Positions 17,433 to 55,916 of a stretch of DNA of 64,000 nucleotides are shown here, piece after piece. The notes under the pieces are model-generated. The model worked only from the letters and a program-made list of their open reading frames with translations. It was not told the DNA's origin and did not search any database. The stretch lies in the NCBI GenBank assembly GCA_958296285.1, contig OY282459.1, forward strand, positions 1,208,336 through 1,272,335, in the 5' to 3' direction. The DNA is from an uncultured Alphaproteobacteria bacterium (GTDB lineage: Bacteria; Pseudomonadota; Alphaproteobacteria; JAPOUT01; G958296285). The position numbers were made by a program, and so were the translations under genes. Positions within the stretch are counted from its first letter, which is position 1. Each line of letters begins with the position of its first letter.

Positions 17433-17633
17433 GGCTTGCTCCCGTTTTAGTGGCTTGCTCCCGTTGAGGGGGGTTTGGGGGGCTAGCCCCCCAAAAAAAG
17501 AGGGGGATCGGGGGGGAATCCCCCCCGAAAAGCGCGTGGGTGGGGTGGGGAAAAAGCATTTGCGAAGCGAGTGAAACGAGCAAGCAAATGCGACCCCACC
17601 CACGCGCCCCCTGCTAGAAGAGCTCTTGCGAGA
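17433..17633. repeat. Palindromic repeat family, locus R1 (left arm)
   Basis: GGCTTGCTCCCGTT (x2), then GGGGGGTTTGGGGGGCTAGCCCCCCAA, then GGGGGGGAATCCCCCCC. A nested hairpin follows: GCGTGGGTGGGGT...GCATTTGC...GCAAATGC...ACCCCACCCACGC. It ends with the centre CTGCTAGAAGAGCTCTTGCGAG. Confidence 0.9.
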
Positions 17634-17697
17634 AGACCTTCTTGCTTCGCGGCTTCGTCCGTGTCAGAATCAAATCACCTTCACAGGAGACCAAAAG

Positions 17698-17967
17698 ATG
17701 TGGGCGACCATCACGCAGGCGATAGGATCGGGGGGAACGGCTCTCGCTTTGATAGCCATCGGCATTGTTTTGGCTAAAGTCTTTCAGCACGACAGAGACA
17801 TTCACGCTCTGCAAGAGCAGGTGGCGACTCTCATCGCGCAGGTTCAGAAACTTGAGGTTTCCATTGCCAAACTGCAAGTTTCCATCGCCAATTTGAACGA
17901 TCTCGTCAGACAGACTTTGCAATCGCCGCAGAGTTCGGGGACAGAAAAACCGCCTCTTGACAGATAA
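17698..17967 (+). CDS. Small membrane-anchored coiled-coil protein (hypothetical)
   Basis: ATG at 17698 preceded by CAGGAGA. It has an N-terminal TM helix (GGTALALIAIGIVLAKVF) followed by heptad-like LQEQVATLIAQVQKLEVSIAKLQVSIANL. It sits between inverted arms R1 and R2. Confidence 0.5.
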   Translation: MWATITQAIGSGGTALALIAIGIVLAKVFQHDRDIHALQEQVATLIAQVQKLEVSIAKLQVSIANLNDLVRQTLQSPQSSGTEKPPLDR

Positions 17968-17970
17968 GAG

Positions 17971-18137
17971 CCTCTTGAAGAGCTCTTGCGAGCAGGGGGC
18001 GCGTGGGTGGGTCGCATTTGCTCGCTCGCTACTCTCGCTTCGCAAATGCTCTTTTCCCACCCACCCACGCGTTTTCGGGGGGATTCCCCCCGACCCCCCC
18101 TTTTCTCAAGGGGGGCAAGCCCCCCTTGACCCCCCTT
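17971..18137. repeat. Palindromic repeat family, locus R2 (right arm, inverted relative to R1)
   Basis: Reads as the reverse complement of the R1 modules: GAAGAGCTCTTGCGAGCAGGGGG, GCGTGGGTGGGTCGCATTTGC...GCAAATGC, GGGGGGATTCCCCCC, GGGGGGCAAGCCCCCC, CACGGGAG. Confidence 0.9.
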
Positions 18138-18224
18138 CACGGGAGCCCCCAATTGCAACATAGAGATAAAAAAATTGACCCCCACCCCTTTGCCCTATCC
18201 TAATCCCTCGCCTAATCTCAAATC

Positions 18225-26894: not shown

Positions 26895-26895
26895 G

Positions 26896-27114
26896 TCTCC
26901 CGTTAAGGGGGGTTTGGGGGGCTTAGCCCCCCAAGAAAACCAAGCGGGCGTAGCCCGCTACAGGTCGGCGGGCGTGGCGCAACGAAGCAAGCGAGGCGAG
27001 CATAGCGAGACGAGCTTGCGAGAAGCCCGCCGACCCCCCTGCTAGAAGAGCTGATAGGCGGGCTTGCGCCCGCCTTGTTTTTCGTGGGGGGCATAATGCC
27101 CCCCACACCCCCCT
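26896..27114. repeat. Palindromic repeat family, locus R3 (left arm plus short right arm)
   Basis: CTCCCGTTAAGGGGGGTTTGGGGGGCTTAGCCCCCC, AGCGGGCGTAGCCCGCT, the GTCGGCGGGC...GCCCGCCGAC long hairpin, a truncated centre, the GGCGGGCTTGCGCCCGCC hairpin, and GGGGGGCATAATGCCCCCC. Confidence 0.9.
27057..27084 (+). terminator. Intrinsic-terminator-like hairpin inside R3
   Basis: GGCGGGC-TTGC-GCCCGCC followed by TTGTTTTTCG, downstream of the SDR operon on the same strand. Confidence 0.5.
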
Positions 27115-27160
27115 TTTTTAAATCTTGACAAAACTCTTCGCCCAACCTAAAAGCAAAACC

Positions 27161-27472
27161 ATGACTGAGAGAACAAAAAGATTCTTCATCATCGCGCTCG
27201 CGGGAATCTTCCTGACCGCCTGCGCGAAACAGCAAGCGGGAATCACCGTCTCGCAATATGCCTCTGGAACGCCTGCCTTTGAGGAATCGCAATTCTTCTT
27301 CCTGTCAGGCATTGGACAAACAAAACATATCAACGCCGCAGAGATATGCAAAGGAGTGAGCAAAGTCCAGCGCGTGGAGTCGCAGCGGACGGGATGGGAT
27401 ATTGTTATTAGCGTTCTGACAGTGGGTATTATCACGCCCTGGACAGCCCGAGTTTATTGCGCAGGGAGATGA
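27161..27472 (+). CDS. Bor/Iss-family lipoprotein
   Basis: Lipobox LTAC. FFFLSGIGQTKHINAAEIC...TPWTARVYC matches the lambda Bor pattern (FFVSGIGQ...AAKIC...YTP..ARVYC) as recalled from memory. Confidence 0.75.
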   Translation: MTERTKRFFIIALAGIFLTACAKQQAGITVSQYASGTPAFEESQFFFLSGIGQTKHINAAEICKGVSKVQRVESQRTGWDIVISVLTVGIITPWTARVYCAGR

Positions 27473-27777
27473 AAATGACACGACTCGGCAAAATGATCCT
27501 TCCGTTCGCATGCATTCTTCTTCTTGCCTCATGCACGACACAGCGCTACGTCCTGCAGGAAAAGAAAATCGCGGATTTCGCTAATTATGAAAGCGGGCAA
27601 ACTTTCTTTCTTCAGGGGATCGGACAGACACAGCACATTGATGCCGCGCAAGTGTGCGGCGGCAAAAATAAAGTCGCGGCGGTAGAATTCCATCAAAGCG
27701 TGTTGGACATCCTTTTGGCGGTTTTGACCAATGGGCTTTATACTCCTCGGACAGTCGGGGTTTATTGCGCCCGCTAG
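27469..27777 (+). CDS. Bor/Iss-family lipoprotein (tandem paralog)
   Basis: Lipobox LASC and FFLQGIGQTQHIDAAQVCGG...YTPRTVGVYC. ATGA overlap with the first copy. Confidence 0.75.
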   Translation: MKMTRLGKMILPFACILLLASCTTQRYVLQEKKIADFANYESGQTFFLQGIGQTQHIDAAQVCGGKNKVAAVEFHQSVLDILLAVLTNGLYTPRTVGVYCAR

Positions 27778-27790
27778 CCGATAATCGGCT

Positions 27791-28522
27791 CTAGCCGATA
27801 AGAGTCTCTATCTCCTTTAGACACTCCGCCAACAGCTTCGGATGCGAGAAAAACGGCGAATGCGCCGAAGGCAAATCATAACGCCTCTCACAGCCGGCGC
27901 GCTCAACCATCCGAATCTGATTGGAATAACGGATCGCCTTGTCTTCCTTGCAAGCGATGTAATAGCGCTTCAGCCGACCAAAACGCTCCTCGCTCAAAGA
28001 CACTGCCTCCCGAAAAGGCGGCATCGCTTGCGGACGCAAATGCCGCTTGGCGAGAGCGATATCCTCGGCGGAGCAGTCTTCGTAGAAGCCGGGGACAAGA
28101 GCCTCGTCTTGGATTGTGAACTCTCCGCGAAGGTGATGAATCTTCAGGAAATCGGCAGGCTCGTCGGCAGGGATGAGGCTCATCAGGCTGTCGCCATTTT
28201 GAGGGAGAAACGCCGCCAAATAGATCAGCGCCCGAAAGCGATGCGGCGATCGCTCCGCCGCGGACGAAATCACAAGCCCTCCCATGGAATGTCCGACAGG
28301 CACGACATCGCCCTTTATGTTTTTGGCGAAATCGGCGACCGCGCGCCCATATTCTGCCATGCTGATTCGCCAGCCCCAGCGTTTTTGTGATTGTCCGAGT
28401 CCGGGCAGGTCTGGCGCCTGCCATTGCAGGCCGAGTTTTTTGAGTTCTGGCGTCAGACGCTGCCAGCACCATGCGCCGTGCCATGCGCCATGCACCAGCA
28501 AGAATGTTGGCGAGTTTGTCAT
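27791..28522 (-). CDS. Alpha/beta-fold hydrolase (esterase-like)
   Basis: FLLVHGAWHGAWCW N-terminus and the GHSMGG nucleophile elbow, 243 aa. Confidence 0.8.
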   Translation of the reverse strand: MTNSPTFLLVHGAWHGAWCWQRLTPELKKLGLQWQAPDLPGLGQSQKRWGWRISMAEYGRAVADFAKNIKGDVVPVGHSMGGLVISSAAERSPHRFRALIYLAAFLPQNGDSLMSLIPADEPADFLKIHHLRGEFTIQDEALVPGFYEDCSAEDIALAKRHLRPQAMPPFREAVSLSEERFGRLKRYYIACKEDKAIRYSNQIRMVERAGCERRYDLPSAHSPFFSHPKLLAECLKEIETLIG

Positions 28523-28561
28523 GGTTCTCCCCCTGATGTTCCGCCTGTTTTTGATTTCCGG

Positions 28562-28634
28562 TGCCGGCGGAGGGATTTGAACCCCCGACCCCCTGATTAC
28601 AAATCAGATGCTCTACCGACTGAGCTACACCGGC
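28562..28634 (-). tRNA. tRNA-Thr (anticodon UGU)
   Basis: The reverse complement folds by hand. Acceptor GCCGGTG/CGCCGGC (one G-U), D stem GCTC/GAGC, anticodon arm TCTGA-TTTGTAA-TCAGG, T arm GGGGG-TTCAAAT-CCCTC, discriminator A. Confidence 0.85.
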
Positions 28635-28646
28635 GCGAGAGCGGTT
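28572..28646. repeat. 75-bp direct repeat, left copy (tRNA-Thr positions 1-63 plus 12 nt of leader)
   Basis: Character-by-character identical to 30670..30744. Confidence 0.9.
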
Positions 28647-28715
28647 CTCTTCTTTGAACAACCTATACTCTATTGCGAGGGGCGGTCAAAGGCAGGAATG
28701 GCTTCGGGGCAGATA

Positions 28716-29759
28716 TCAACCAATTTGACGCATTCTAATCTGAAAGTTGTTTTTCTGCGCTTCTTCTTTAAGAAGAGTCAATGTCTTTTCCTGAATGACG
28801 CTCAAACGCGCCAAAGGCTTTCCGACGGTCAACTTCAAAACCGCTTTGGCGTTTAATTTTTTCCCATCCGCTTCCACATCCTGCAGGTTTGTGTACAGAA
28901 GCATCTTGATAAGGGCGTCTTTGATATCATCAATTGACGGTAATGCGTTTCTCGCGTGCTTTGCCTCTATCAAATGAATATCGGTTCCTTTCAGTTCCAC
29001 TTCATCTGCTGTGAAATAATAAAGGCCGCCAAGATAGTTCTTGATGGTTACGCTTGCCTTAGTTCCCGCAAGACGTTCTTTAGGCTGAACCGTAACAATT
29101 TCTCGCATTTGGGCATCTTTTGCCAATTGACGAGATAGATTCCTGAATTCCTCCGCACCCTTGCGCAATTTCGTGATCCTTCTCTCAAAAGTTTTGTGAG
29201 AATGCATCTCAACCCCGGTCTTCTTTGAAATGGTTTCATAATTTTCCAACGCTCTCTGAACATAAGAGCCGACCCTGTCAATTTCAGACAAATTCCAATG
29301 CAGCGCATCAGATTGATATGACAATATCTCCCTGATTCTCTTCTTTAGGTATCGCGCGTCAAATTGCTGATTTGTGATTTTGTCCGGATGGCGCGCGTTT
29401 CGCTCCGCGCTAGTGTAATAGCCAATGATCGCATATATGCCGATTAAGCTCATCAGTGAAATTGTGTCCCATTGCAAAAAATCTCTGTCTCCCCTTTTGC
29501 CTTCGTCTTTAACGATCGGAATGATCGTGATTCTCCTTCCGGAAAAGGAAAGAGTGTCATACACCCTCGCATAGGGATATGAGCGGGTGCGTTTTGGAGA
29601 CACCCAGCGGCTTACGGCGATTTTATGATCTTTGCCCGCATTCAGATTAAAGACTGAGTTCTTGAGAGCCTCTTCCAAATCCTTGAACGCATAATCCCTC
29701 CGCTCCGCGCAAAGAAGCGGCTTATAGCTAAGCCCTTTGATTTGCGCGGAGATATTCAT
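28716..29759 (-). CDS. Putative type II restriction endonuclease
   Basis: Overlaps the 3' end of the methyltransferase gene. It has a C-terminal PD-(D/E)XK-like motif (FTADEVELKGTDIHLIEAKH). GC is low relative to the flanks. The start MNISAQ at 29759 is assumed; the track ORF extends to 29789. Confidence 0.55.
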   Translation of the reverse strand: MNISAQIKGLSYKPLLCAERRDYAFKDLEEALKNSVFNLNAGKDHKIAVSRWVSPKRTRSYPYARVYDTLSFSGRRITIIPIVKDEGKRGDRDFLQWDTISLMSLIGIYAIIGYYTSAERNARHPDKITNQQFDARYLKKRIREILSYQSDALHWNLSEIDRVGSYVQRALENYETISKKTGVEMHSHKTFERRITKLRKGAEEFRNLSRQLAKDAQMREIVTVQPKERLAGTKASVTIKNYLGGLYYFTADEVELKGTDIHLIEAKHARNALPSIDDIKDALIKMLLYTNLQDVEADGKKLNAKAVLKLTVGKPLARLSVIQEKTLTLLKEEAQKNNFQIRMRQIG

Positions 29760-30600
29760 AATTGTCTGTCTGCCTCGTGATAATCTCAAATTGATCGTTT
29801 CTGTTGCTGAACAAATTGCCTTGTCCGCCGTGGAAGCCCAATTTTTCCTTAATGATGGGCAGGAGAGATTTTTTTATTTCAAAGCCGACGCTGTTTCTTT
29901 CCAGCTCGCGCGCCTTTTTCATGGTCGTGCCGCTGCCCGCGAAGGGATCCAGCACGGTTTCGCCCTTATAGGAGAAGAGTTTGATTGCCCGATAGGGCAG
30001 TTCTTCAGGGAAAGCGGCGATGTCCTTCTCAAGAGGCGAGCCGGGCATGACATTGTTCATTTCCCAAAGCGTCATATACCACTTCTTTTCTTGAAACTCT
30101 TTCGTATCCACTTTGGACGCTTCTCTCACAGATTGAGGAATAGAGCGGTAATTGAATTTCCCCTTCTGGAAGATGATGATGCTTTCAAGCAGGTTGTCGG
30201 GATAAAAATACATAGGATAAGGGTTCTGCAAAACGACTCCGCTACGACGGCTGATTCTCAGATAGCCGTCGGGTTTTTTCCAAATGATTCTATCCCTGTA
30301 TCGGAAGCCTGCCTCTTGAAAGATTTTTGTCGCGTCCGCGACGATCGGAAATTTCTCGCCATCAATCAGCATGTCATCTATGTTCAGCACGACGATCCTG
30401 CCGCTCTGCAGGACGCGGTGCGTTTCTTGGGCGAAATGCCGCAATATGTTGAGATATTGCTCGTAGCTCTTGAACAAGCCCTTATAGTCAAAGGGCGCGT
30501 TGAAGTAGGGGGGCGAGGTCACCATCAGATGGACGCTTCCGCTAGAAAGTTCCGCCATGCTGGTACAGCTGCCGAGAATAAGTTTATGATTCGTTCCCAT
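29728..30600 (-). CDS. Beta-class DNA methyltransferase (N4-cytosine or N6-adenine)
   Basis: Motif IV SPPY lies near the N-terminus and motif I DPFAGSGTT near the C-terminus (IV-before-I order). SPPY favours N4-cytosine. Confidence 0.85.
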   Translation of the reverse strand: MGTNHKLILGSCTSMAELSSGSVHLMVTSPPYFNAPFDYKGLFKSYEQYLNILRHFAQETHRVLQSGRIVVLNIDDMLIDGEKFPIVADATKIFQEAGFRYRDRIIWKKPDGYLRISRRSGVVLQNPYPMYFYPDNLLESIIIFQKGKFNYRSIPQSVREASKVDTKEFQEKKWYMTLWEMNNVMPGSPLEKDIAAFPEELPYRAIKLFSYKGETVLDPFAGSGTTMKKARELERNSVGFEIKKSLLPIIKEKLGFHGGQGNLFSNRNDQFEIITRQTDNYEYLRANQRA

Positions 30601-30669
30601 CTCTGCCGACCGTAGAGATTTTTAAAACTTTCGCAAGAAGAAACCGCATAGTTTGCTGTCGGGGATTGT

Positions 30670-30744
30670 GGGATTTGAACCCCCGACCCCCTGATTACAA
30701 ATCAGATGCTCTACCGACTGAGCTACACCGGCGCGAGAGCGGTT
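30670..30744 (-). pseudogene. Truncated duplicate of tRNA-Thr (positions 1-63 plus 12-nt leader), the right copy of the 75-bp direct repeat
   Basis: Identical to 28572..28646. The sequence that would form the 3' acceptor strand (AATCCCC) cannot pair with GCCGGTG, and the T stem has a mismatch. Confidence 0.8.
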
Positions 30745-31146
30745 TCATCCGGGCAGACGCTCATAACTTGCCACGCCTTCGGGGATTGTATGGAAGGTCT
30801 GTTTGTCTAGCGTGAAGATTGCCATATCCGGCATTCCGAAGATGCTGGGATCGTCCAGCGTTCCGACTTTGATGAAGACGAGCGGCATATTTGGCACACG
30901 CGAGACGATATGGGTTCCGCATGTTCCGCAGAATTCGCGGGTGCTGCCGTTTTCAAGGTCGGCTCGTTTGAAGTGTTTGGGTTCGCCTTTTGTGTATGCG
31001 AAGGAGTCTTCTGGGACGCCCATCAAGACGTTGGGTGATCCGCCTGAGATATATTGGCATTCGCGACAGTGGCATTGTCCTTTCATTGCGGGGTCTCCTG
31101 CTTTGTATTGGAGTTCGCCGCAATAGCATCGTCCTGTGGTTCCCAT
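30745..31146 (-). CDS. GFA (glutathione-dependent formaldehyde-activating / CENP-V-like) family protein
   Basis: Cys-rich pattern CYCGELQY...CHCRECQ...FCGTCGTHI, 133 aa. Confidence 0.8.
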   Translation of the reverse strand: MGTTGRCYCGELQYKAGDPAMKGQCHCRECQYISGGSPNVLMGVPEDSFAYTKGEPKHFKRADLENGSTREFCGTCGTHIVSRVPNMPLVFIKVGTLDDPSIFGMPDMAIFTLDKQTFHTIPEGVASYERLPG

Positions 31147-31302
31147 GATGTTTCCTTTTCTTATAGGGGTTTGATTGAGTGGGGTTATTATTCATGGGGG
31201 TTGCGTTTGATGTCAAGGCGGGCGGCGAGCCGCCGCGGGCATCTTTTGCATGGAGTGGAGTTTGTTTTTGCCGCAGGGGAACTAATGCATAGAAGCTAGA
31301 GG

Positions 31303-31514
31303 TGAAGGGGGGTTTGGGGGGCTAGCCCCCCAAGAAAAACCAAGCGGGCGTAAGCCCGCTATAGTCGGCGGGCGTGGCGCAACGAAGCAAGCGAGGCGAG
31401 CATAGCGAGACGAGCTTGCGAGAAAGCCCGCCGACCCCCCCTGCCGCTTGCATGAGTGGCGGGCTTCGCCCGCCTTGTTTTTTCGCGGGGGGTGTCGCAC
31501 CCCCCGCACCCCCC
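31303..31514. repeat. Palindromic repeat family, locus R4 (near-identical to R3, same orientation)
   Basis: It shares with R3 even the variable loop GTGGCGCAACGAAGCAAGCGAGGCGAGCATAGCGAGACGAGCTTGCGAGAA. Confidence 0.9.
31334..31360 (-). terminator. Intrinsic-terminator-like hairpin inside R4 (minus-strand sense)
   Basis: On the minus strand it reads AGCGGGC-TTAC-GCCCGCT followed by TGGTTTTTCTT. It lies downstream of the minus-strand Sel1 gene. Confidence 0.45.
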
Positions 31515-32111
31515 TTATTTGTCAGAATTTGCGTTAGGTTGCCAGTTCCGCGACAATCTCTGACCTTCGGCAATCTGTTCCTGCGTCATGGACTGTTCCA
31601 GTAAGTTAAGACATACGAGGGCGGATTCATGCCCTCGCGCCGATGCCAAATTGCACCACTTGTAAGCCTTCACATAATCCTTCGGAACGCCCCATCCTAG
31701 ATGATACATCAAGCCGAGAACACCCTGCGCCCATGCGTCGCCCTGATCGGCAGCCTTGCGGTACAAGCGCGCGGCTCTTTGATAATCCTTCGGAACGCCT
31801 TTGCCTTCGTAATACATTCTGCCGAGAAGAACTTGCGCCGATGCGTTGCCCTGATCCGCAGCTTTGTAATACCAGAGCAGAGCTTTCCGATAATCCTTCC
31901 CAACGCCCCAGCCATTGGCATACATCCAGCCGAGAAAGCCCTGCGCCGATGCCTCGCCCTTCTCGGCAAGAGGCAGGCATAAACGATAGGCGGTTTTATA
32001 GTCCTTGCGAACAGCTGCCGCCTCGCAGGAGTCGGCTGAAGCAGGAGGCGCGGCATGAAAAAACGCCAACGCGAAGAGACCCATAAAGAGCGCCGCCCGC
32101 TTATTCATCAT
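31515..32111 (-). CDS. Sel1-repeat protein, secreted
   Basis: Signal peptide and four Sel1 units. It is a close paralog of the N-terminal half of 39533..40906. The stop codon abuts R4. Confidence 0.8.
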   Translation of the reverse strand: MMNKRAALFMGLFALAFFHAAPPASADSCEAAAVRKDYKTAYRLCLPLAEKGEASAQGFLGWMYANGWGVGKDYRKALLWYYKAADQGNASAQVLLGRMYYEGKGVPKDYQRAARLYRKAADQGDAWAQGVLGLMYHLGWGVPKDYVKAYKWCNLASARGHESALVCLNLLEQSMTQEQIAEGQRLSRNWQPNANSDK

Positions 32112-32253
32112 CGCCCTCTTCCATTAACCCTAGCCTAGCCAAGATTATAGCACCTTTTCTCAGCAAGAACTCTTTAGGATTGCGCGAAAAGCCTAGAACA
32201 TCTATTGTCATCAAGACCCTACCATCGCCTCTGGCGCAAAAGAGGAGCGAGAC

Positions 32254-40921: not shown

Positions 40922-41060
40922 GAGCTCTTGCGATGCAGGGGGGTCGGCGGGCTTCTCGCCTCGCTACGCTCGGCTTCGTTGCGCCACGCCCGCCGACCTT
41001 TCGGGGGGATTCCCCCCGACCCCCCCTTTCTCAAGGGGGGCAAGCCCCCCTTGACCCCCC
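40922..41060. repeat. Palindromic repeat family, locus R9 (right arm)
   Basis: GAGCTCTTGCGATGCAGGGGGG, the long hairpin, GGGGGGATTCCCCCC, GGGGGGCAAGCCCCCC. Confidence 0.9.
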
Positions 41061-41419
41061 TATTTTTGGTGCTTCCCATAGCGAGGCTGATCCACAGCAA
41101 CCTTATCCAAAACAGTCTCCCAAAGATGATCCTTAAGCGTCTCAAGAGAAATCTCGCCAGCCTCAATTTTCTTGCAAAGACGGCGATTCGCCTCCTCCAG
41201 CGACAGCCCATCCTCTAACCCCAAAAGGCGTTGAAGACGCGCCTTCTCCCTCTCCCGCGCCGCCTCGCCCGAAACAATCTCGCGCATGACAATCTCTAAA
41301 ACATTGACGGCAACCAGCGCATGAAAACGACTCTGATCCTTAAGATCAGGTATCAATTTCTCTTTGATGAAATCACGCGCCGCTCTAAGAAGCGCTTCGG
41401 AAGAAGGCGGATCAAACAT
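41060..41419 (-). CDS. Small helical hypothetical protein partnered with the upstream phosphotransferase
   Basis: 119 aa. It overlaps the stop of 41412..42398. I recall similar small proteins (DUF6285-like) downstream of APH-type kinases, but this is unverified. Confidence 0.5.
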   Translation of the reverse strand: MFDPPSSEALLRAARDFIKEKLIPDLKDQSRFHALVAVNVLEIVMREIVSGEAAREREKARLQRLLGLEDGLSLEEANRRLCKKIEAGEISLETLKDHLWETVLDKVAVDQPRYGKHQK

Positions 41420-45358: not shown

Positions 45359-45390
45359 GGTGTTATCATAGTGCATAGGAGCTTGAAGGT

Positions 45391-45694
45391 GCAGGGGGGT
45401 GTGGGGGGCTAGCCCCCCGCGAAAAGGGGGTTCGGGGGAAACCCCCGAAAAGCGCGTGGGTGGGGTGGGGAAAAAAGCATTTGCGAGCAAACGCAGTGCA
45501 GCGAGCAAATGCGACCCCACCCACGCGCCCCCTGCTCGCAAGAGTTTTTGCGATGCAGGGGGGTCGGCGGGCTTTCTCGCGCACTTGCGCTACGCGCTTC
45601 GTGCGCTTCGTTTCGCCACGCCCGCCGACTATTCGGGGGGATTCCCCCCGACCCCCCCTTTTTCGCGGGGGGTCTCCGACCCCCCACACCCCCC
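45391..45694. repeat. Palindromic repeat family, locus R10 (complete element, both arms)
   Basis: Left arm with a W-type core hairpin (GCGTGGGTGGGGT...), the centre CTGCTCGCAAGAGTTTTTGCGATGCAG, and a right arm with a G-type core hairpin (GTCGGCGGGC...). Confidence 0.9.
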
Positions 45695-46009: not shown

Positions 46010-49000
46010 CGCGCCGCTCTCATGGTCTGATCTGACAGGAGAAGCTTTTCCTAATCTGCCCAATGAAGGCGCTCTGAAAATCGGCGGCGCGGCGCAGCCT
46101 CTGGACGCGCTCTTTGTCGCCGAAGCGCTGAAAACCAACAGAATCACAAGCGCGCTCTGGATCGTCAGCGGCAACGCCAGACTCGCCGCGCTTGCCAAAA
46201 CGCTGGACATCCTCGCCCCCAATCTCCAAAAAATCACGATCCCCGCCTGGGACTGCCTCCCCTATGATCGCGTCTCGCCCGATCCGACAAGCGCCGCCGA
46301 AATCGCCGCAGCCCTCGCCGAAATCGCGCAGGACGCCAAGACCGCTCCGCTTATCCTCGCCGCCGCCCCGATGGTCTCGCGGAAGATTCCGCCCAAAAAC
46401 ATCATGGCGGAAGGCTCTCTGACGATAAGAAAAGGCGAGAGGCAGGACAGAGCCTCCATCATCCGCTTTCTTGAGCGATGGGGTTTTAGGCGCGCGGCGT
46501 CTGTCGCGCAGCTCGGAGACTATGCCCTTCGCGGGAGCATCATAGACGTCTATCCGCCCCGCGCCGCGCCGACACGGATAGATTTCTTCGGCGATGAGGC
46601 GGAGACCCTCCGCCATTTTGACGTGGCAAGCCAGCGCACGCTCGCCGAAACGGAGAGAATCACAATCCGCGCCGCCAGCGAAGTCAGGCTGGACGAAGAA
46701 ACCGCCAAAAACTTTCGGACAGCATGGCGCGAGATTTTCGGCGTCAAGGCGGCGCGCGAAACTTTTCCGACAGCGATCGGCGAGAGAATCCGCGAACCGG
46801 GCATGGAGCATAATCTCCCTCTTTTCTATCAAACCATGACGACGATCTTCTCCTATATCCCTCAAAATGCCGCGATTTTTCTAGATCCCGACAGCGAAGA
46901 GGCGGCAGAGCGGCATCGCGATCTCATCCGCTCCTGCCATGACGAGCGCGCGCGACTCGCCAAACACGCCGAAGAAGAGGAGGCATGGCGACCCCTTCCT
47001 CCCAAAAAACTCTGGCTGGACGAAAAACTATGGCGGCAGGCGCTTCAAGCGCGGCGCGGTCTGACGTTCAGCCCTTTCGCCGCGAGAGACGGAATCGCCG
47101 ATTTGGGAGGGCGAGCCGTTCCGGATTTCTCCGCGCATCGCATAAAGAGGGAAGGGCTTCTTCAAGCGCTCCGCGAGCGCGCCCAAGAAATTTGGAAAAC
47201 AGGCGGGATGGTTCTCCTCGCGGCGCGAGACGAGGCGGCATTGAATCGTCTTGAAAACACGCTGGAAAAAGAAGCCGCGCTCCCATCGGCGCGGACGGAT
47301 TGGACGCGCCTCGCCTCTCTGCCTCCGAAAACTGTCGGTCTGATCGCGATCCCGCTAGAAACAGGCTTTCGCGTCAGGCGTCTGACGCTGCTGACGGAAG
47401 GCGATCTCTTCGGACATAAAAGACGCCGCCCTATCGCGATCTCGCGCGCGGACGCGAAAGACGTTCTCCGCCGCTTTCAATCGCTGATGCCCGGCGATCT
47501 GATCGTCCATCTGGAACATGGAGTCGGACGCTTCCACGGACTCCGCCGCCTCCGCGTCTCCGAAGACGAGCATGAATGTTTTGAACTCGTCTATCAGAAT
47601 GACGACCGCCTGCTGCTGCCTGTGGAAAACGCCGAACTCCTCTCGCGCTATGGCGGAGACGGCGAAGCCCCGCTGGACAAACTCGGCGCGGCGGGATGGC
47701 AGGCGCGTCATGCGCGAGTGAAAAAGCGCGTCCGCGAGATGGCAGGGGAGCTTATTCGGTTGGCGGCGGAGCGCAGCGCCTCGCAGGCGGCGCGCTTGAC
47801 CCCGCCCCAAGGACTCTATGACGAATTCCGCGCCCGCTTCCCCTATGACGAAACCCCCGATCAGGCGCGAGCCGAAGAAGAGATGATCGCCGATCTCTCG
47901 GCAGGAAAGCCGATGGATCGTCTGATTTGCGGGGATGTCGGCTTCGGCAAGACCGAGCTCGCGCTCCGCGCCGCCTTCATTGTGGCGATGGCGGGGCGGC
48001 AGAGCGCTATCATCACGCCAACGACCCTCCTCTGCCGACAGCATCTGGAGACGTTCCGCCTCCGTTTTGAAGGCTTGCCGATGAAAATCGGCCATGTGTC
48101 CCGACTCGTCTCGCGCAAGGAGATTGACGCCGCCCGCCGTCAATGCCGAGACGGAACGATGGACATCGTCATCGGAACCCATGCGCTTTTGTCGGAAGAG
48201 ACGGCGTTCCGCGATCTGGGGCTTCTTGTCGTGGATGAAGAGCAGCATTTCGGGGTCGCCCATAAAGAGAGGCTGAAGGCGCTCAAGGAGAAGAAGGAGA
48301 ATGTCCATGTGCTGACGCTGACGGCGACTCCGATCCCGCGCACGCTGCAGCTGGCGCTCTCCGGAGCGCGGGATATGTCCCTGATTGGGACGCCGCCGCG
48401 CGACCGCATCTCGGTGCAGAGTTTCGTCGGCCCCTTTGACGCGATGACGCTCCGCCGCGCCATGATCCGCGAGAAGGCGCGGGGAGGGCAGAGTTTTATT
48501 GTCGTCCCGCGCATATCCGATCTGCCTCGGATGGAGCGCTTTTTAGAAACCCATCTCGCCGACCTCAAGAGAATCGCGCTTCACGGACGCATGCCCCCTA
48601 AAGAGATGGAGCGCGGCATCGGCGCGTTCTATGACGGAAACGCCGATATTCTCCTCTCCACCCATATTGTGGAATCCGGGCTGGACATCCCCGCCGCCAA
48701 CACGATCATCATTTATCGGTCGCATATGTTTGGCTTGGCGCAGCTGCATCAGCTGCGGGGGAGGGTCGGGCGATCCGATCGGCAAGCCTATGCCTATTTC
48801 ACGCTGCCGGCAGGCGCTCTGACAGGCAATGCCGAGCGCAGATTGTCGGCGCTTCAGGCGGTCGATTCTTTGGGCGCGGGCTTCTCATTGGCGGCGCAGG
48901 ATTTGGATCTGCGCGGCGCAGGGAATCTCCTCGGCGCCGAGCAGTCCGGACATATCCGCGAAGTCGGCTATGAACTCTATCAGCAGATGCTGGAAGACGC

Positions 49001-49607
49001 CGTCCGAAATCTTCGCCAAAATGGCGTTCGCCAAAATGGCGTGCGCCAAAATGGCGTTCGCCAAAATGGCGTCCGCAAAGAGGGCGAAAGCCCGAAAGAC
49101 GCCGAAGCGCCGTTCTCCCCGACGATGAGGATTGGCGTCACGGCGCTCATTCCCGAAGATTACGCGCCGGATTTGGCGCTCCGCCTGCGTCTCTATCGCC
49201 GCCTCGCCGATATGACCCGCGATTCGGAGATAGAGGAATTCCGCGAGGAACTGCGAGACCGTTTCGGCGCGACTCCTCCGCCTTTGGAGAATCTGCTCAA
49301 ACTCGCCTCTTTGAAGAATCTCTGCCGCCGCGCGAATATCGCTTCGGTGGAGGCGGGCGCGGGCGGCGGACGTTTCACGTTCCATCGCGGGCGGTTCGCC
49401 AATCCCGAAGGTCTGGCGCGCTTTCTGATGGAGGGGGCGGGCGCGTCTCTTTCGCCGGATCATGTCCTTTCCGTCCGAAGAGATTGGCGCGAGAATCGCA
49501 TGGAGGCGCTGCAGGATTTCCTTGCGCGTCTTGTCAAGATTGCCGAAAATACAAATACAGCCAACAATGGAGCGACAAGAGAAAGCGATGCTAAAACCCC
49601 TCTCTGA
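46002..49607 (+). CDS. mfd: Transcription-repair coupling factor
   Basis: 1201 aa, with GDVGFGKTE, DEEQHFGV, TATPIPRT and the central CarD-like region HLEHGVGRF. Confidence 0.95.
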   Translation: MSDAPLSWSDLTGEAFPNLPNEGALKIGGAAQPLDALFVAEALKTNRITSALWIVSGNARLAALAKTLDILAPNLQKITIPAWDCLPYDRVSPDPTSAAEIAAALAEIAQDAKTAPLILAAAPMVSRKIPPKNIMAEGSLTIRKGERQDRASIIRFLERWGFRRAASVAQLGDYALRGSIIDVYPPRAAPTRIDFFGDEAETLRHFDVASQRTLAETERITIRAASEVRLDEETAKNFRTAWREIFGVKAARETFPTAIGERIREPGMEHNLPLFYQTMTTIFSYIPQNAAIFLDPDSEEAAERHRDLIRSCHDERARLAKHAEEEEAWRPLPPKKLWLDEKLWRQALQARRGLTFSPFAARDGIADLGGRAVPDFSAHRIKREGLLQALRERAQEIWKTGGMVLLAARDEAALNRLENTLEKEAALPSARTDWTRLASLPPKTVGLIAIPLETGFRVRRLTLLTEGDLFGHKRRRPIAISRADAKDVLRRFQSLMPGDLIVHLEHGVGRFHGLRRLRVSEDEHECFELVYQNDDRLLLPVENAELLSRYGGDGEAPLDKLGAAGWQARHARVKKRVREMAGELIRLAAERSASQAARLTPPQGLYDEFRARFPYDETPDQARAEEEMIADLSAGKPMDRLICGDVGFGKTELALRAAFIVAMAGRQSAIITPTTLLCRQHLETFRLRFEGLPMKIGHVSRLVSRKEIDAARRQCRDGTMDIVIGTHALLSEETAFRDLGLLVVDEEQHFGVAHKERLKALKEKKENVHVLTLTATPIPRTLQLALSGARDMSLIGTPPRDRISVQSFVGPFDAMTLRRAMIREKARGGQSFIVVPRISDLPRMERFLETHLADLKRIALHGRMPPKEMERGIGAFYDGNADILLSTHIVESGLDIPAANTIIIYRSHMFGLAQLHQLRGRVGRSDRQAYAYFTLPAGALTGNAERRLSALQAVDSLGAGFSLAAQDLDLRGAGNLLGAEQSGHIREVGYELYQQMLEDAVRNLRQNGVRQNGVRQNGVRQNGVRKEGESPKDAEAPFSPTMRIGVTALIPEDYAPDLALRLRLYRRLADMTRDSEIEEFREELRDRFGATPPPLENLLKLASLKNLCRRANIASVEAGAGGGRFTFHRGRFANPEGLARFLMEGAGASLSPDHVLSVRRDWRENRMEALQDFLARLVKIAENTNTANNGATRESDAKTPL
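49024..49083 (+). repeat. In-frame 15-bp tandem repeat x4 (plus a partial fifth) inside mfd
   Basis: CGCCAAAATGGCGT(T/G/C) repeated, encoding (RQNGV)x4. Confidence 0.9.
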
Positions 49608-52111: not shown

Positions 52112-52869
52112 TCCTGTCGGCGCTTTTCGGTCTGACGGCGCTTGTCTATGCGAGCGTGGGCTTTGGCGGCGGATCCACCTATATCGCGCTTCTGGCGATC
52201 AGCGGCGCGGATTATCGGATGATTCCGATTGTCGCGCTCTCCTGCAACCTTTGCGTTGTCGCCGGAGGCGTCATGCGCTTCGCCGCCGCAGGGCATTTGG
52301 ATATTTTGAAGATTCTGCCGCTTGTGATCGTCTCGGCGCCGATGGCGTGGGCCGGCGGCTCTCTCATTGTCTCGGAGGCGCTTTTTCTCGGTCTCTTGGG
52401 GTGGACGCTTCTCGCCGCGTCTCTTTTAACATGGCGGGGCGGGGCGCTTGATAGATCGCCGATTGTTAAAGGCGGCAAGACGGCTCTTCTTCTTGCGAGC
52501 GGCGGGGTTGGGTTTTTGTCGGGACTTGTCGGGATTGGCGGCGGGATTTTCCTCAGCCCTCTCCTTCATATCGCGCGGTGGGCGAAGCCGAAGGAGATTG
52601 CCGGAACGGCGGCGCTCTTTATTTTTGTCAATTCGGCGGCGGGGTTGATCGGACAGATCGGGAAAGGGTCTGGCGCGATTTATGGCGAGGCTCTGGGTTT
52701 CGCGCCTTTGCTGATCGCGGTGATTGTCGGCGGACAGATCGGCGCATTGTGGGGGGCGCGCCGCGCCGCGCAGGCGCGTCTCCGCAAGATCACGGCGGCG
52801 CTTGTTTTTCTCGTCTCTTTGCGCTTATTGTGGCGGTGGGGCGGACTCATCGGAATCTCGGCGTTATGA
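52057..52869 (+). CDS. TauE/SafE-family anion exporter-like membrane protein
   Basis: Polytopic, with two GxGGG-type motifs (VGFGGGS, VGIGGGI). The start is uncertain; TTG at 52057 overlaps the upstream gene. Confidence 0.65.
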
Positions 52870-53849
52870 AGAGGCTGACAGACAATTTCGGTCGCCGCAT
52901 TGATTATTTGCGTCTTTCGGTCACGGATCGCTGCAATTTGCGATGCGTGTATTGCATGCCGAAGAGGATGCGATTTCTTCCGAAGAGGGATGTTCTATCC
53001 ATTGAGGAGTTGGAGGCGCTGGCTTCGGCTTTCATTCGGCGGGGCGTCAGGGCTGTGCGGATCACCGGCGGCGAGCCTTTGATGCGCGGCGGCGTGATGC
53101 GATTGTTTCGCGCTTTGTCCCGTCATTTGCGCCGAGGGGATTTGGACGAGATCGCTTTAACGACGAATGGGTCGCGTCTTGCGTCTTTTGCCGGCGCTTT
53201 GAGGGATTGCGGCGTGGAGCGCGTCAATGTTTCTTTGGACACGTTGAAGCCTGATATTTTTTCGGCGCTGACGCGGGGCGGGTTGCTTTCGGAGGTTTTA
53301 TCGGGGCTTGAGGCTGCTGACAAAGCGGGGTTGAGGGTTAAGATTAATCTTGTTGTTCTTGGCGATGCGAATCTTGATGAGGTTCCGGAGGTTATTATGT
53401 GGGCGCATGGTCGGGGTTATGCGGTTTCGTTGATTGAGGTTATGCCGTTGGGGGATGTGGGCGAGGATCGTTTGGCGCAATATGTTCCGTTGGATTTTGT
53501 TCGGCGGCGTTTGTCTGAGCGATGGGTTTTGGAGGCGGAGGGTTATCGGAGTTTGGGGCCGTCGCGTTATGTTCGGGTGAGGGAGACGGGGGGGTTATTG
53601 GGTTTTATCACGCCGTTGACGGAGAATTTTTGCGCTTCGTGCAATCGGGTTCGGGTGAGTTGTGTTGGGGAGTTTTTTGGGTGTTTGGGTCGCGGGGTTT
53701 CTGTGGATTTGCGCGGGGCGTTGCGCGGGGGATTTTTGGATGAGGCGATAGACAGGGCGTTATTGGGGAAGATGTGGGGTCATGATTTTCGGATTGGTGG
53801 GGGAGTTGGGGTGCCTGTGGCGCGGCATATGTCGGTGACGGGGGGCTAG
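52866..53849 (+). CDS. moaA: GTP 3',8-cyclase (molybdenum cofactor biosynthesis)
   Basis: Radical-SAM CNLRCVYC motif and a C-terminal CASCNR cluster motif. ATGA overlap with the upstream gene. Confidence 0.9.
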   Translation: MKRLTDNFGRRIDYLRLSVTDRCNLRCVYCMPKRMRFLPKRDVLSIEELEALASAFIRRGVRAVRITGGEPLMRGGVMRLFRALSRHLRRGDLDEIALTTNGSRLASFAGALRDCGVERVNVSLDTLKPDIFSALTRGGLLSEVLSGLEAADKAGLRVKINLVVLGDANLDEVPEVIMWAHGRGYAVSLIEVMPLGDVGEDRLAQYVPLDFVRRRLSERWVLEAEGYRSLGPSRYVRVRETGGLLGFITPLTENFCASCNRVRVSCVGEFFGCLGRGVSVDLRGALRGGFLDEAIDRALLGKMWGHDFRIGGGVGVPVARHMSVTGG

Positions 53850-53890
53850 GCGGCTCCCGTTGAGGGGGGTTTGGGGGGCTAGCCCCCCAA

Positions 53891-53916
53891 GAAAAACCAA
53901 GCGGGCGAAGCCCGCT
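53891..53916 (-). terminator. Intrinsic-terminator-like hairpin in the R11 left arm (minus-strand sense)
   Basis: On the minus strand it reads AGCGGGC-TTC-GCCCGCT followed by TGGTTTTTC. It would end transcripts of the SBP gene after they cross the element. Confidence 0.45.
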
Positions 53917-54088
53917 ATAGTCGGCGGGCGTGGCGAAACGAAGCGAGCGTTAGCGAGCGAGAAAGCCCGCCGACCCCCCTGCTAGAAGAGCTCTTGTAAG
54001 CAGGGGCGGTTGGGGGGTGGGTCGCTTTTCCTCGTTTCGCTACGCTTCACTCGGAAAAGCTTTTTTCCCACCCCACCCCCCAACCTAT

Positions 54089-54118
54089 AGGCTGCCTTAC
54101 GGCAGCCTTGGTTTTTTT
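54089..54118 (+). terminator. Intrinsic-terminator-like hairpin in the R11 right arm
   Basis: AGGCTGCC-TTAC-GGCAGCCT followed by TGGTTTTTTT, downstream of moaA on the same strand. Confidence 0.5.
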
Positions 54119-54143
54119 GGGGGGCAAGCCCCCCAAACCCCCC

Positions 54144-55916
54144 TCAACGGGAGCCCCCCTCAAGCCACCACAAATCCGCCGCCGTCCCATATAACGAACC
54201 CCTCTCAGGAAACCCAACCCAATCCCATGCCGCTAACCACTGATCCCCCGAATAAAACAACGGAATCACATAAAACCCCGACAACAAAACCCGATCCAAC
54301 GCCCTCACCGCATCCCGAAAACCCCCACGATCCTCAGCCCCAACCAACGCCCCTATCAAAAAATCCACAGCCCCAGACCGAACCCCCGCATAATTCCTGC
54401 TCCCCTCAAACCCCGCCGCCTCACTCCCCCAATAAAAAGCCTGCTCATTCCCAGGCGACAACGATACCCCCCAACGATAAAAAATCATGTCAAAATCAAA
54501 ATCCCTCATCCGACGCTCCCCCTGCGCCGAATCCACAAAACGAACCCGAGCCTCCACCCCCGCCAACCGCAACTGCCGCGCGAAAACTAAAGCCAACCGC
54601 TCCTCATGACGCCGAACACACAAAATCTCAAAACGAAAAACCTCGCCCCCAACATCCCGAAGAACGCCGCCCTCTAAAAACCACCCCGCCTCCCCAAAAA
54701 GCGCGAGCGCCGCCCTCCGACCCGCCCGATTGTGCCGACCCTCCGAAACAGGCGGACGATAACCGCCCTCCAAAATCTCCGGCGCAACCTCATCAGCAAA
54801 AGACGCAAGCAAAGCGCGCTCGCCAGCGCTCGCCCCCAACCCATGAGACGATAAATCCGAATTGGCGAAAAAACTCCCAATCCGCCGATACTTCCCATGA
54901 AAAAGATGCGCATTAATCCACTCAGCATCCAACAAAAGCGAAAGAGCCTCGCGGACGCGCCTGTCCGAAAAAATCCCCCGCCGCGTGTTGAAAACAAGAC
55001 CCCACATGCCAGACGGCGACCCCGTCGGAATCTCCTTCAACAGAATGCGTCCGCGATCCCTCGCCGGCGCGTCATATTGAACAGCCCAGCGCGAAACATC
55101 TCGCTCCGCGCGCGCGTCAATCTCGCCCGCCTTAAAAGCCTCAAAAGCCGAACCCTCATCACGAAAATAACGATACAAAACCCGATCCGCATTAAATCGC
55201 CCGCGATTGACAGGCAAATCCTTCCCCCAATAATCCAAATCGCGCTGATAAAGAATCTTCTCGCCCGGCGCGATCTCGGCAACCCGATACGCCCCGCTCC
55301 CTAAAGGCGTTTTAAGAGAGGTCTCGTCAAACCTATGCTTCGTGAAATAAGCCCGCGACAAGATCGGCATCAAACCCATAATGAGCGGCATCTCCCTGTC
55401 GCTCCCCGCCTTGAAAACAAAACGGACGCCCCGCGCGCCAACCTTCTCCATCCGAGCGATCTTGCCATAATAAAAACGATGATTCGGACGACCCTTCTCC
55501 CGAAGCGTCCGCGCCGAAAACAAAACATCCTCCGCGCGGACAGGAGAGCCGTCAGAAAAACGCGCCTTCGGATGAAGCGTGAAAAGAACGGAGCTTCTGT
55601 CCGGCGGCGTCTCAATCGTCTCGGCAAGAAGACCATAAAGCGTGAAAGGCTCGTCCCATCCGCGCGCCATCAGACTCTCATAGACAAATTCGCGCAAGCC
55701 GGCGGCAGGCTTCCCCCGAATGATGAAAGGATTGACGCTGTCAAACGTCCCGCTGCGCGAAAGATGAAGCGTCCCGCCTTTCGGCGCGTCAGGACGAACA
55801 TAGGGAAAATGAGAGAAGCCTCTCTGATAAAGCGGCGCGCCATGCATGGCGATCGCGTGAGAATCGGCGAGAGCGCCCCCGGCGTCCGCCGTCAGAAAAG
55901 CGCAGGCGAGCGCCAA
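54144..55916 (-). CDS. Family-5 extracellular solute-binding protein (orphan ABC SBP, YejA-like)
   Basis: 590 aa, SBP_bac_5-like throughout. No permease or ATPase gene is adjacent. The last codons and the stop lie inside the R11 terminal repeat. Confidence 0.8.
   Translation of the reverse strand: MALACAFLTADAGGALADSHAIAMHGAPLYQRGFSHFPYVRPDAPKGGTLHLSRSGTFDSVNPFIIRGKPAAGLREFVYESLMARGWDEPFTLYGLLAETIETPPDRSSVLFTLHPKARFSDGSPVRAEDVLFSARTLREKGRPNHRFYYGKIARMEKVGARGVRFVFKAGSDREMPLIMGLMPILSRAYFTKHRFDETSLKTPLGSGAYRVAEIAPGEKILYQRDLDYWGKDLPVNRGRFNADRVLYRYFRDEGSAFEAFKAGEIDARAERDVSRWAVQYDAPARDRGRILLKEIPTGSPSGMWGLVFNTRRGIFSDRRVREALSLLLDAEWINAHLFHGKYRRIGSFFANSDLSSHGLGASAGERALLASFADEVAPEILEGGYRPPVSEGRHNRAGRRAALALFGEAGWFLEGGVLRDVGGEVFRFEILCVRRHEERLALVFARQLRLAGVEARVRFVDSAQGERRMRDFDFDMIFYRWGVSLSPGNEQAFYWGSEAAGFEGSRNYAGVRSGAVDFLIGALVGAEDRGGFRDAVRALDRVLLSGFYVIPLFYSGDQWLAAWDWVGFPERGSLYGTAADLWWLEGGSR

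Follow-up and report, generated by a model that had tools for sequence, protein, structure and literature searches.

Repetitive extragenic palindromic (REP) units and the bacterial interspersed mosaic elements (BIMEs) built from them are linked to transcription termination, to the stabilisation of mRNA 3' ends and to recombination. Alphaproteobacteria harbour intergenic mosaics of large palindromes, the Rhizobium-specific intergenic mosaic elements (RIMEs) and the Sinorhizobium REPs, and some Sinorhizobium REPs or repeats are transcribed. In Correia elements, the inverted repeats are 26 bp long, the target duplication is TA and an IHF site is present. RIMEs and Sinorhizobium REPs are cited in PMC2873474. 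A REP unit is an imperfect palindrome of 20-40 nt, one end of which bears a conserved tetranucleotide, GTAG or CGTC (PMC3733652), and the REPIN-RAYT and TIRtron systems are inverted hairpin doublets that persist vertically and occupy the same loci in related strains (PMC3116915; PMC3733652). Here we analysed a stretch of 64,000 nucleotides (the window) of contig OY282459.1 (assembly GCA_958296285.1), from an uncultured alphaproteobacterium, in which large palindromic repeats lie among housekeeping genes. These form a lineage-specific, previously undescribed family of non-coding palindromic mosaic repeats. In its presumed working the family comes closest to REP/BIMEs and to the intergenic mosaic elements (RIME, BOX, Correia/NIME), and it is a member of no named family. 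On balance we favour the view, by a modest degree probable, that the repeats act both as two-way terminators and as recombination hot spots. The pairing of repeat arms around cargo genes, the outward orientation of terminator-like modules and the rearrangement at every locus compared are new with respect to a preliminary description of this DNA.

Searches of the window with nhmmer and profile hidden Markov models of the arms identified 15 repeat arms at 11 loci, seven on the + strand and eight on the - strand. These arms range from 17452 to 54157, and the remaining 27 kb are devoid of them. Repeats made of common modules had been announced at eleven loci, and regular-expression scans found all of the modules at the places given for them: the terminal word CTCCCGT at 17439, 17458, 26897, 34930 and 53854, its complement at 18139, 35693 and 54147, G6-loop-C6 hairpins (21 in the window, with the loops described before), W cores at 17534, 18001 and 45454, and AGAGCTCT centres at 17619, 17979, 35077, 35538 and 53987. 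A repeat search of the window recovers the repeat families directly. A chance origin of the modules was ruled out by dinucleotide-preserving shuffles: the hairpin-1 word GGGGGGNNNGGGGGGCWAGCCCCCC and the G-core word GTCGGCGGGCGTGGCGMAACGAAG, present in seven and nine copies, respectively, did not occur in any of 100 shuffled windows.

Read from the outside to the centre, an arm of about 130-190 nt consists of a terminal module (T1 or T2), G6, hairpin 1, an A-rich run, hairpin 2, a long core, C6 and the centre. T1 is (GGCGTTTTGACGC/GGCTT)GCTCCCGTT(A/G)A. The alternative terminal module T2, a unit of about 95 nt with the end ...GCCGCAGGGGAACTAATGCATAGAAGCTNNAGGTGAA (for example 31222-31296), was missing from the initial list of modules, which was in this respect incomplete. 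Hairpin 1 is laid out as N3-4, G6, loop, C6, N3-4'. Hairpin 2 occurs in two forms, a mini-hairpin G5-7-AAT/AAA-C5-7 preceded by G5-7, and a terminator-type hairpin CCAAG-CGGGCG-AAG-CCCGC. The long core is either of the G type, which carries a conserved unpaired motif GTGGCG(A/C)AACGAAGC, or of the W, W' or W'' type, and the centre module is TGCTCGCAAGAGCTCTTGCGAGCA. Two arms joined head to head via the palindrome CCCCCTGCTCGCAAGAGCTCTTGCGAGCAGGGGG make up an element of about 300 bp. An RNAalifold consensus of ten arms of both core types contains a G5:C5 clamp around hairpin 1, hairpin 2 and the core, and each arm is accordingly modelled as a self-contained four-way junction.

Along the window, left (L) and right (R) arms follow each other in the order L R, L R, L R, R, L R, L R, L R, L R. 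Four elements are closed palindromes (B, C, F and G), two of which, B and C, combine a full left arm with a short right arm. Four open pairs of arms (A, C-C2, D and E) surround genes and enclose 0.3-1.7 kb. Loci that had been read as single arms turned out to be inverted arms paired around cargo, namely A (17433-18146), D (34916-35713), E (39011-41060) and C/C2. The two copies described as complete are indeed palindromes of about 300 bp: as RNA, the closed copies at 45389-45694 and 53853-54154 fold with -218 and -213 kcal/mol (z = -15 and -14), and one closed copy folded as DNA yields -120 kcal/mol (z = -16). The terminal inverted repeat of the last element had been put at about 26 bp; it is instead about 59 nt long at 86% identity, and the repeat search lists terminal inverted repeats (I16, I17) of 56-59 nt at 86-89%.

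Element A begins 2 nt past the cysNC stop codon. Its left arm (17433-17632, + strand) carries T1 twice (GGCTTGCTCCCGTT), G6, a hairpin 1 of the form G6-CTAG-C6, a mini-hairpin G7-AAT-C7, a W core and the centre CCCCCTGCTAGAAGAGCTCTTGCGAG, and its right arm (17965-18146, - strand) two centres, a W core, a mini-hairpin, a hairpin 1 with the loop CAAG, C6 and T1. The cargo between them (17633-17964, +) is an open reading frame (ORF) of 89 aa (17698-17967) with its own Shine-Dalgarno sequence and a GC content of 0.52, which encodes a membrane-anchored coiled-coil protein. The left arm of element D (34916-35095, +) begins 9 nt past a stop codon with an extended T1 repeat GGCGTTTTGACGCGCTCCCGTT, followed by hairpin 1, a terminator-type hairpin 2, a G core and the centre. 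The D cargo (35096-35520, -) encodes a tail-anchored coiled-coil protein of 107 aa (35112-35435), and the right arm (35521-35713, -) consists of the centre, a G core, a mini-hairpin with T7 (terminator-like, 35631-35657), hairpin 1, C6 and T1, with a gap of 16 nt to the next Sel1 gene. In element E, the left arm (39011-39182, +) overlaps the TauD stop codon; it has the T1 variant GCTCCTGTGAA, hairpin 1, a mini-hairpin (G5-AAA-C5) and a G core that contains an internal duplication, and it has no centre. The E cargo (39183-40906, +) encodes a 457-aa protein with Sel1 repeats and a trypsin-like peptidase (39533-40906, GC 0.54). The right arm (40907-41060, -) comprises the centre, a G core, a mini-hairpin, a hairpin 1 with the loop CAAG and C6, and touches the stop codon of ORF 41060-41419(-).

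Element C (31222-31514) is made of T2 (31222-31296), a full G-core left arm and a short right arm formed by a terminator (31458-31474), G6-TGTCGCA-C6 and C6. It adjoins the stop codon of the Sel1 gene 31515-32111(-), the first gene of the C-C2 cargo (31515-32894), which further includes an ORF of 73 aa, a gene for a DUF2335 membrane protein (+) and, at 32163, a centre-like remnant. The right arm C2 (32895-33052, -) is composed of the centre, a G core with the inner stem GCGGGC/GCCCGC, a mini-hairpin, G6-CTTCG-C6 and C7. Element B (26895-27113), an asymmetric closed palindrome, begins 1 nt past the stop codon of the SDR gene; its full G-core left arm (26895-27056) is joined to a short right arm with a terminator hairpin (27056-27075) and T-run, G6-CATAATG-C6 and C6. 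In element F (45389-45694), a left arm with a W core and a right arm with a G core (inner stem GCGCAC/GTGCGC) are joined at the centre AAGAGTTTTT; F is located between the divergent recG and sdhE-mfd genes, whose start codons are 16-32 nt away. Element G (53849-54158), whose left arm has a G core and whose right arm has a W' core, separates moaA from the SBP_bac_5 gene, which is convergent to it, and the two ORFs terminate inside the element. Terminator-like hairpins are found in G at 53916-53900 on the - strand and at 54089-54108 on the + strand.

The gene context is that of an ordinary alphaproteobacterial chromosome (lptD/F/G, pepA, gyrA, cysH, cysNC, glmU, glmS, recG, sdhE, mfd, moaA). At cysNC, the SDR gene and an ACP-synthase-III-like gene, the distance from the stop codon to the start of the element is 1-9 nt. 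The loci had been called intergenic, which is not strictly the case: four ORFs take their stop codons at or inside an element end (31515-32111(-), 41060-41419(-), 52578-53849(+) and 54144-55916(-)). At element G, the last codons and stops of moaA and of the SBP_bac_5 gene come from the element termini GGGGGGCTAG and GCTCCCGTTGA (53840-53849 and 54144-54158). The C-terminus of MoaA is altered in a sister strain, where the element terminus is a different one (L087, 8110-8125; L numbers designate the loci compared).

The window was scanned for intrinsic (Rho-independent) terminators by consensus. Between 17 and 56 kb, ten of the strongest matches are hairpin-2 modules of the arms, which fit the definition of a GC-rich hairpin of 7-10 pairs followed by a T-run, as judged by the consensus scan. 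All ten face from the centre to the outside, on the - strand in left arms and on the + strand in right arms. Each arm bears an outward module of this terminator-like kind. Thus, a transcript entering an element, or arising inside it, would meet a hairpin and a U-run on its way out.

The genes enclosed by open arm pairs have a GC content of 0.52-0.54, compared to 0.57-0.63 in the neighbouring housekeeping genes, and the cargos of A and D have a full centre AAGAGCTCTT on each side. The 107-aa protein encoded in element D is a member of a family (P0001-P0034) of small coiled-coil proteins that are tail-anchored and contain 11-residue repeats. This family counts at least 13 paralogs in each of two contigs of about 1.7 Mb and almost none elsewhere in the database. 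Its paralogs are flanked by arms in D and in L090, by a left arm only in L083 and by no arms in L082/L085 and L086. Secreted Sel1-repeat proteins are encoded four times within 26 kb (14313-14729, 31515-32111, 35729-36775 and 39533-40906), twice as cargo. The Sel1 cargos of C-C2 and E are paralogous (81% over about 400 nt) and oppositely oriented. A recently moved Sel1 cassette common to both elements was ruled out, their homology being confined to the coding sequence. We also ruled out a promoter module common to all cargos, which is present only at some paralogs. That the T1/T2 ends serve as promoters (for example through the TATAAT 9 nt before the Sel1 ATG at 35729) was left as speculation; T2 proved to be a terminal module that occurs at both ends of an element. 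In L083, three genes for TPR proteins (at 15864, 16880 and 20295) are each preceded by a half-centre and then TTGAATCTCGTCCGAGCG, which suggests a shared 5' end of the cassettes.

Related assemblies were retrieved by exact protein match: ENA ERZ19489054, which is fragmented, and ERZ19489113, one contig of which measures 1,723,605 bp; the homologue tables also cite an NCBI contig of 1,733,000 bp. Contigs of ERZ19489054 break at elements (L087, 1-20; the right end of L081), and its contig_12 begins just right of F. The genes on either side of the elements share 96-98% identity when the window is compared with the sister assemblies. The presence or absence of elements had been proposed as a check between strains, but all eight loci compared are occupied in every strain. 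What differs, at all eight, is the arm type, the orientation or the cargo. At locus A, sister strain L081 has the cargo in inverted orientation (reverse match of 93%), and its two arms are built from other types of module. At loci B and D, the left arms have G cores in the window and W cores in ERZ19489113, and the loop of the right hairpin of B reads CATAATG in one strain and its reverse complement CATTATG in another. The C-C2 cargo, Sel1 and DUF2335 genes in the window, is replaced in both sister strains by a 236-aa ORF and an N6/N4 methyltransferase; there, C2 pairs directly with the left arm of C. At locus D, the sister strains (L081, L084) hold an additional helix-turn-helix (HTH) cassette of about 0.5 kb exactly at the centre, bordered by the direct repeat (C/T)CCTGCTCGCAAGA, a half-centre, and the window lacks this cassette. 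The 1.7-kb cargo of E in the window contrasts with a cargo-free palindrome of about 300 bp in ERZ19489113. Elements F and G have their W and G cores in the opposite order in the sisters, F in the sister genome and G in a sister strain with W on the left and G on the right. Terminal modules vary as well: T1 (GCTCCCGTT) occurs once or twice in tandem depending on the strain, and the T2 module of about 100 nt is either absent or present between duplicated GGTGAAGGGGGGTTTGGGGGG, at the same site in different strains.

The family is present in at least three distant regions of the genome of about 1.7 Mb (three assemblies). About 190 kb away in the sister genome, L083 contains about five arms, two of which form a pair that encloses a TPR gene. 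About 600 kb away, L090 contains two closed elements between convergent genes and a pair of T2-ended arms around two small genes, with the T2 module at both termini of this cargo-bearing element. A segmental duplication confined to one region, which the preliminary description had kept in view, is thus ruled out by copies lying hundreds of kilobases apart. No arms were detected in three other loci of 16-20 kb (L082, L085, L086), and the genomic distribution of the family is patchy. About 26 arms were counted in the roughly 138 kb sampled, a sampling biased by the choice of loci via a cargo protein family; a rough extrapolation from it would put the number of arms per genome in the order of 10^2.

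Database searches place the full arms nowhere else. At the gathering threshold, Rfam reported three tRNAs only in the whole window and thus no family that matches the repeats; in E-value scans of F and G, the best sub-threshold matches were generic long-hairpin microRNA models (36 bits vs 168). BLAST against phages returned no match to the elements, and BLAST against plasmids only Helicobacter matches, to hairpin 1. Scans of JGI metagenomes gave zero matches for the G-core word and zero for the hairpin-1 plus mini-hairpin pattern, which is explained by the isolation of the lineage: outside its assemblies, the nearest Mfd is only 46-47% identical. A literature search found no description of this repeat family. 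The preliminary description saw no RAYT, transposase or integrase in the 64-kb window, and Pfam searches confirm this and find no recombinase domain there either. Window and gene tables (L081-L087, L090) together, roughly 140 kb without redundancy, yielded neither Y1_Tnp nor any other transposase domain.

The preliminary description further proposed that structure is conserved more than sequence, on the basis of compensatory variants in the inner stems. All of the variants quoted are present, and we examined them in 16 distinct G cores. In the inner stems, five pairs are changed on both sides, compared to 2.4 +/- 0.8 in shuffles (3 of 500 reach five), the covariation score is 0.054 compared to 0.025 in shuffles (reached by none of 500), and slid controls gave 0-2 doubly changed pairs. 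The variants are GCGGGC/GCCCGC, GCAAGC/GCTTGC and GCGCAC/GTGCGC, with GCAAAC/GTTTGC in another strain; some core stems carry tandem G.A pairs, and W cores show matching changes in both outer and inner stems. The proposal is therefore borne out in part, by the inner stems. It does not extend to the 10-bp outer stem of the G core, which is invariant and thus uninformative on covariation, and the compensatory changes, although real, are few (about 3-4 independent variants). Moreover, in quasipalindrome mutagenesis, template-switch correction can make paired changes in a single step in DNA palindromes, so that paired changes need not reflect selection on a fold. A second signal is strand polarity: in 22 of 22 arms the strand read from the outside to the centre folds more stably than its complement, and G.T wobbles that extend hairpin 1 number 21 on that strand and none on the other, in four sequence types. 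Such polarity would be expected if the strand that matters for folding is the transcript that runs into the element, from whichever side; common descent of the copies is another possible cause.

The comparison with described systems can be drawn on this basis. Dispersed modular palindromes of the REP, REPIN or MITE (miniature inverted-repeat transposable element) kind, larger than classic REPs, had been proposed, and the arms and modules bear this out. With REP/BIMEs, likened here by their description, the elements share extragenic palindromic units in alternating orientation, the association with other motifs and the position after stop codons or between convergent genes. As in the BIME and RIME mosaics, the palindromic units alternate in orientation and their modules are combined differently per locus and strain. 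They differ from REP/BIMEs in that the unit is 130-190 nt long, which exceeds a REP four- to fivefold, with three or four hairpins under a G6:C6 clamp instead of one 35-nt hairpin, in that the heads are GCTCCCGTT(A/G)A or T2 followed by G6, with neither GTAG nor CGTC, and in that arms bracket genes. REPINs and TIRtrons resemble the family in being inverted doublets of hairpin units, here left and right arms and four closed doublets, and in the occupation of the same loci in related strains; the elements described here are however 3-5 times larger, carry cargo other than transposases, lack the GTAG/CGTC tag and are accompanied by no RAYT/TIRYT in the sampled DNA. Terminal inverted repeats as in MITEs (I16, I17) are present; target-site duplications were not seen at A, D or G, nor was an insertion sequence with the same ends seen in the sampled DNA. 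The likeness to RIMEs, by description only, lies in large-palindrome intergenic mosaics in alphaproteobacteria; to our knowledge, neither the bracketing of variable genes nor G6/C6 clamps have been described for RIMEs. Correia/NIME (dRS3) arrays are similarly modular arrays of inverted repeats with a gene content that varies between strains and an effect on neighbouring transcription, which in our elements would be of the kind proposed above, and the 26-bp inverted repeats, TA duplication and IHF site of Correia elements were not seen here.

Integron attC and pdif sites offer another likeness, in that structure is conserved over sequence, cassettes are bounded by palindromic sites and their content varies by strain; modules between inverted pdif sites can also invert. 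An attC site was nonetheless ruled out, since the ends GTTAAGG ... CCTTAAC are in the opposite order to RYYYAAC ... GTTRRRY and the last base misfits. Moreover, unlike attC sites, the elements are dispersed among housekeeping genes and not arrayed beside intI, and the window has no integrase. The centre geometry, TGCTCGCAA-GAGCTC-TTGCGAGCA, fits the two inverted arms of about 11 bp and the 6-bp spacer of a Xer/dif site, and the centre does not resemble E. coli dif as we take that site to be.

In the mechanism that we favour, a neighbouring gene would be read into the element and RNA polymerase would stop at the outward hairpin and U-run of the far arm, the element thereby being a two-way terminator and insulator. 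The clamped multi-hairpin arm at the 3' end of the mRNA may then shield it from exonucleases. Near-identical inverted and dispersed modules would also recombine readily, with the G6TTTG6 runs, the hairpin stems and the centre as candidate points, whether by template switching, by gene conversion or by an enzyme yet to be found. Such recombination could flip loops, cores and cargo and swap modules between copies, and cargo may be gained, lost or exchanged at the centre. Several observations count against this mechanism. Mini-hairpin arms have weaker T-runs than arms with a terminator-type hairpin 2, and what speaks for putative termination and mRNA protection comes from consensus scans. Element F separates divergent genes, where a terminator is needless, and with start codons 16-32 nt away it has to permit promoters as well, or provide them itself. 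All strains have an element at each orthologous locus, and neither a fresh insertion nor an empty site was seen. No target-site duplication and no direct repeat common to the flanks was found at A, D and G, whose true ends are uncertain because there is no empty site for comparison. The strains compared are metagenome assemblies, one of them fragmented and broken at elements, so some of the differences may reflect consensus chimerism. Finally, the roughly 140 kb sampled yielded no mobilising enzyme.

In a different explanation, a dedicated site-specific recombinase encoded elsewhere would cross over at the centre palindrome, whose inverted arms of at least 11 bp flank GAGCTC. Promoter-bearing accessory cassettes (Sel1/TPR proteins, small membrane proteins, methyltransferases, HTH regulators) would be inserted, excised and flipped there, and the four-way-junction arms with outward terminators would shield the neighbouring housekeeping genes. 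Full centres on both sides of the A and D cargos would be expected from such docking, as would the HTH cassette placed exactly at the centre between its half-centre direct repeats, the breakpoints of the A cargo inversion, which fall within the centres, and the two states of E, cargo-free in one strain and loaded in another. A symmetric spacer would permit both inversion and excision, arm-bracketed cargo recurs at the TPR gene of L083 and the two small genes of L090, and the GC content of cargo is below that of housekeeping genes. We consider this explanation rather improbable even so. Neither the window nor about 75 kb of further loci yielded a recombinase, and the changes are not clean site-specific events because the arms differ between strains as well. 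The left arm of E has no centre, an arm of L083 beside P0002 and a restriction-modification system has no partner, and the Sel1 cargos are homologous in their coding sequence and not site to site. Short direct repeats at the ends of insertions or deletions are also left by slippage or homologous recombination.

Were the arms instead ends that a transposase encoded once elsewhere and acting in trans (a RAYT/TIRYT-like HUH tyrosine or DDE enzyme) recognises, be it as hairpins of single-stranded DNA or as terminal inverted repeats, the closed palindromes would be non-autonomous derivatives of a selfish REPIN or MITE and any terminator activity would be incidental. The long terminal inverted repeats, the hairpins at both ends, the inverted doublet and the patchy dispersal over three genome regions agree with such an origin, and the strain-dependent copy number of T1 is footprint-like. 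RAYT-like genes amid long, partly self-complementary inverted repeats are documented (PMC3733652). Yet the hairpins have no GTAG or CGTC head beside them, arms of 130-190 nt are far above the size of a REP unit, A, D and G lack target-site duplications, no locus differs in presence or absence among the three strains and no transposase is encoded in the sampled DNA, and we give this origin little credence. The remaining explanation sees the arms first of all as genes of structured RNAs, or as cis-regulatory RNAs (small RNAs or 3' untranslated regions), selected for their fold, with the DNA repeats as a by-product. This explanation appears to us very unlikely. It would account for the compensatory inner-stem changes, for a four-way junction kept across G- and W-type arms, for the strand bias in stability and G.U pairs and for the conserved unpaired motif of the G core. 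But Rfam has no match, nearly identical hairpins occur on both strands, and the arms have opposite polarity, so that one transcript would carry one arm in its less favourable orientation. An independent transcript has no evident promoter, the covariation stems from few independent events, and wholesale module swaps between strains are not what a conserved RNA gene would show.

Outside the lineage, hairpin 1 is the one module that recurs, and arm profiles match the sequences concerned over hairpin 1 alone. The pattern G6-N3-G6-CWAG-C6 has at least 80 matches in species-representative genomes, and 51 of the 80 listed represent one Rhodobacterales repeat. This unit of about 50 nt reads ccTTCtTct...AAATAtcCT-GGGGGG-TNN-GGGGGGCTAGCCCCCC-N'N' (also written AAATATCCT-G6-TNN-G6CTAGC6), with two co-varying stem-extension pairs, and its copies frequently precede the starts of unrelated genes on the opposite strand by 25-45 nt (for example L004 5767-5791, L015 5146-5170 and L069 7195-7219). 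Rfam reported nothing at the hairpin-1 sites of 15 other loci. In cyanobacterial contigs (L029, L046, L048, L041, L019, L001, L066, L075), hairpin 1 follows another hairpin and additional G-runs, a context whose four G-tracts could in principle form a G-quadruplex. A Planctomycetaceae contig has seven G6-CTTG/CAAG-C6 hairpins within 1.1 kb (L073 4093-5210). Two low-GC Helicobacter plasmids (L088 1500-1560, sp. NHP19-012; L089 1500-1565, H. suis pHS_2) carry GGGGGTTTGGGGGGCTTGCCCCCCAAGAAAAATCC and then a CCAAGC-GCAA-GCTTGG hairpin, 94% identical to hairpin 1 and the A-run of the window; these copies lie upstream of the replication initiation gene, by about 0.5 kb in L088.

Other features of the window were also recorded. 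The region 27100-31300, between B and C, has a low GC content (0.50) and contains two Lambda_Bor-like lipoprotein genes, a hydrolase, tRNA genes at 28562-28634 and 30660-30732, a 357-aa ORF without family match and an N6/N4 methyltransferase; it looks like the remnant of an island. Two paralogous MFS_2 transporter genes are in tandem at 56468-60028 (repeats D4, D5 and D12, spacing 2079-2082 bp, identity 71-74%), the first of them fused to an APS-kinase domain. Coding tandem repeats of 15 nt are found near the 3' end of mfd (TTCGCCAAAATGGCG, five times, 48997-49101) and in the gene of a DPBB/SPOR protein (AGRGNCTCGCCCCGS units, 60850-61212).

What sets the family apart is an unusually large and ordered element, the bracketing of variable genes, the rearrangement of every locus compared and the sharing of one module across phyla; it demonstrates no new principle so far. 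In practice, the elements break metagenome assemblies and supply stop codons to neighbouring ORFs, which is relevant for annotation. The hairpin G6-N3-G6-CTAG-C6 raises the question of its role in Rhodobacterales, cyanobacteria and Helicobacter plasmids, where it is widely shared. If the favoured mechanism is true, a small (about 1.7 Mb) and isolated alphaproteobacterial genome would devote, by rough extrapolation, some hundred or more sites to an elaborate repeat that joins a two-way transcription stop and the marking of accessory-gene turnover, which are usually studied apart. If cassettes do dock at the centres, in an exchange system that would be new to the literature, this reduced genome would have an integron-like function operating via dispersed palindromic sites. 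All together, the family may provide a natural system to understand how palindromic repeats persist and diversify, and how they could serve as portable homology or docking sites.

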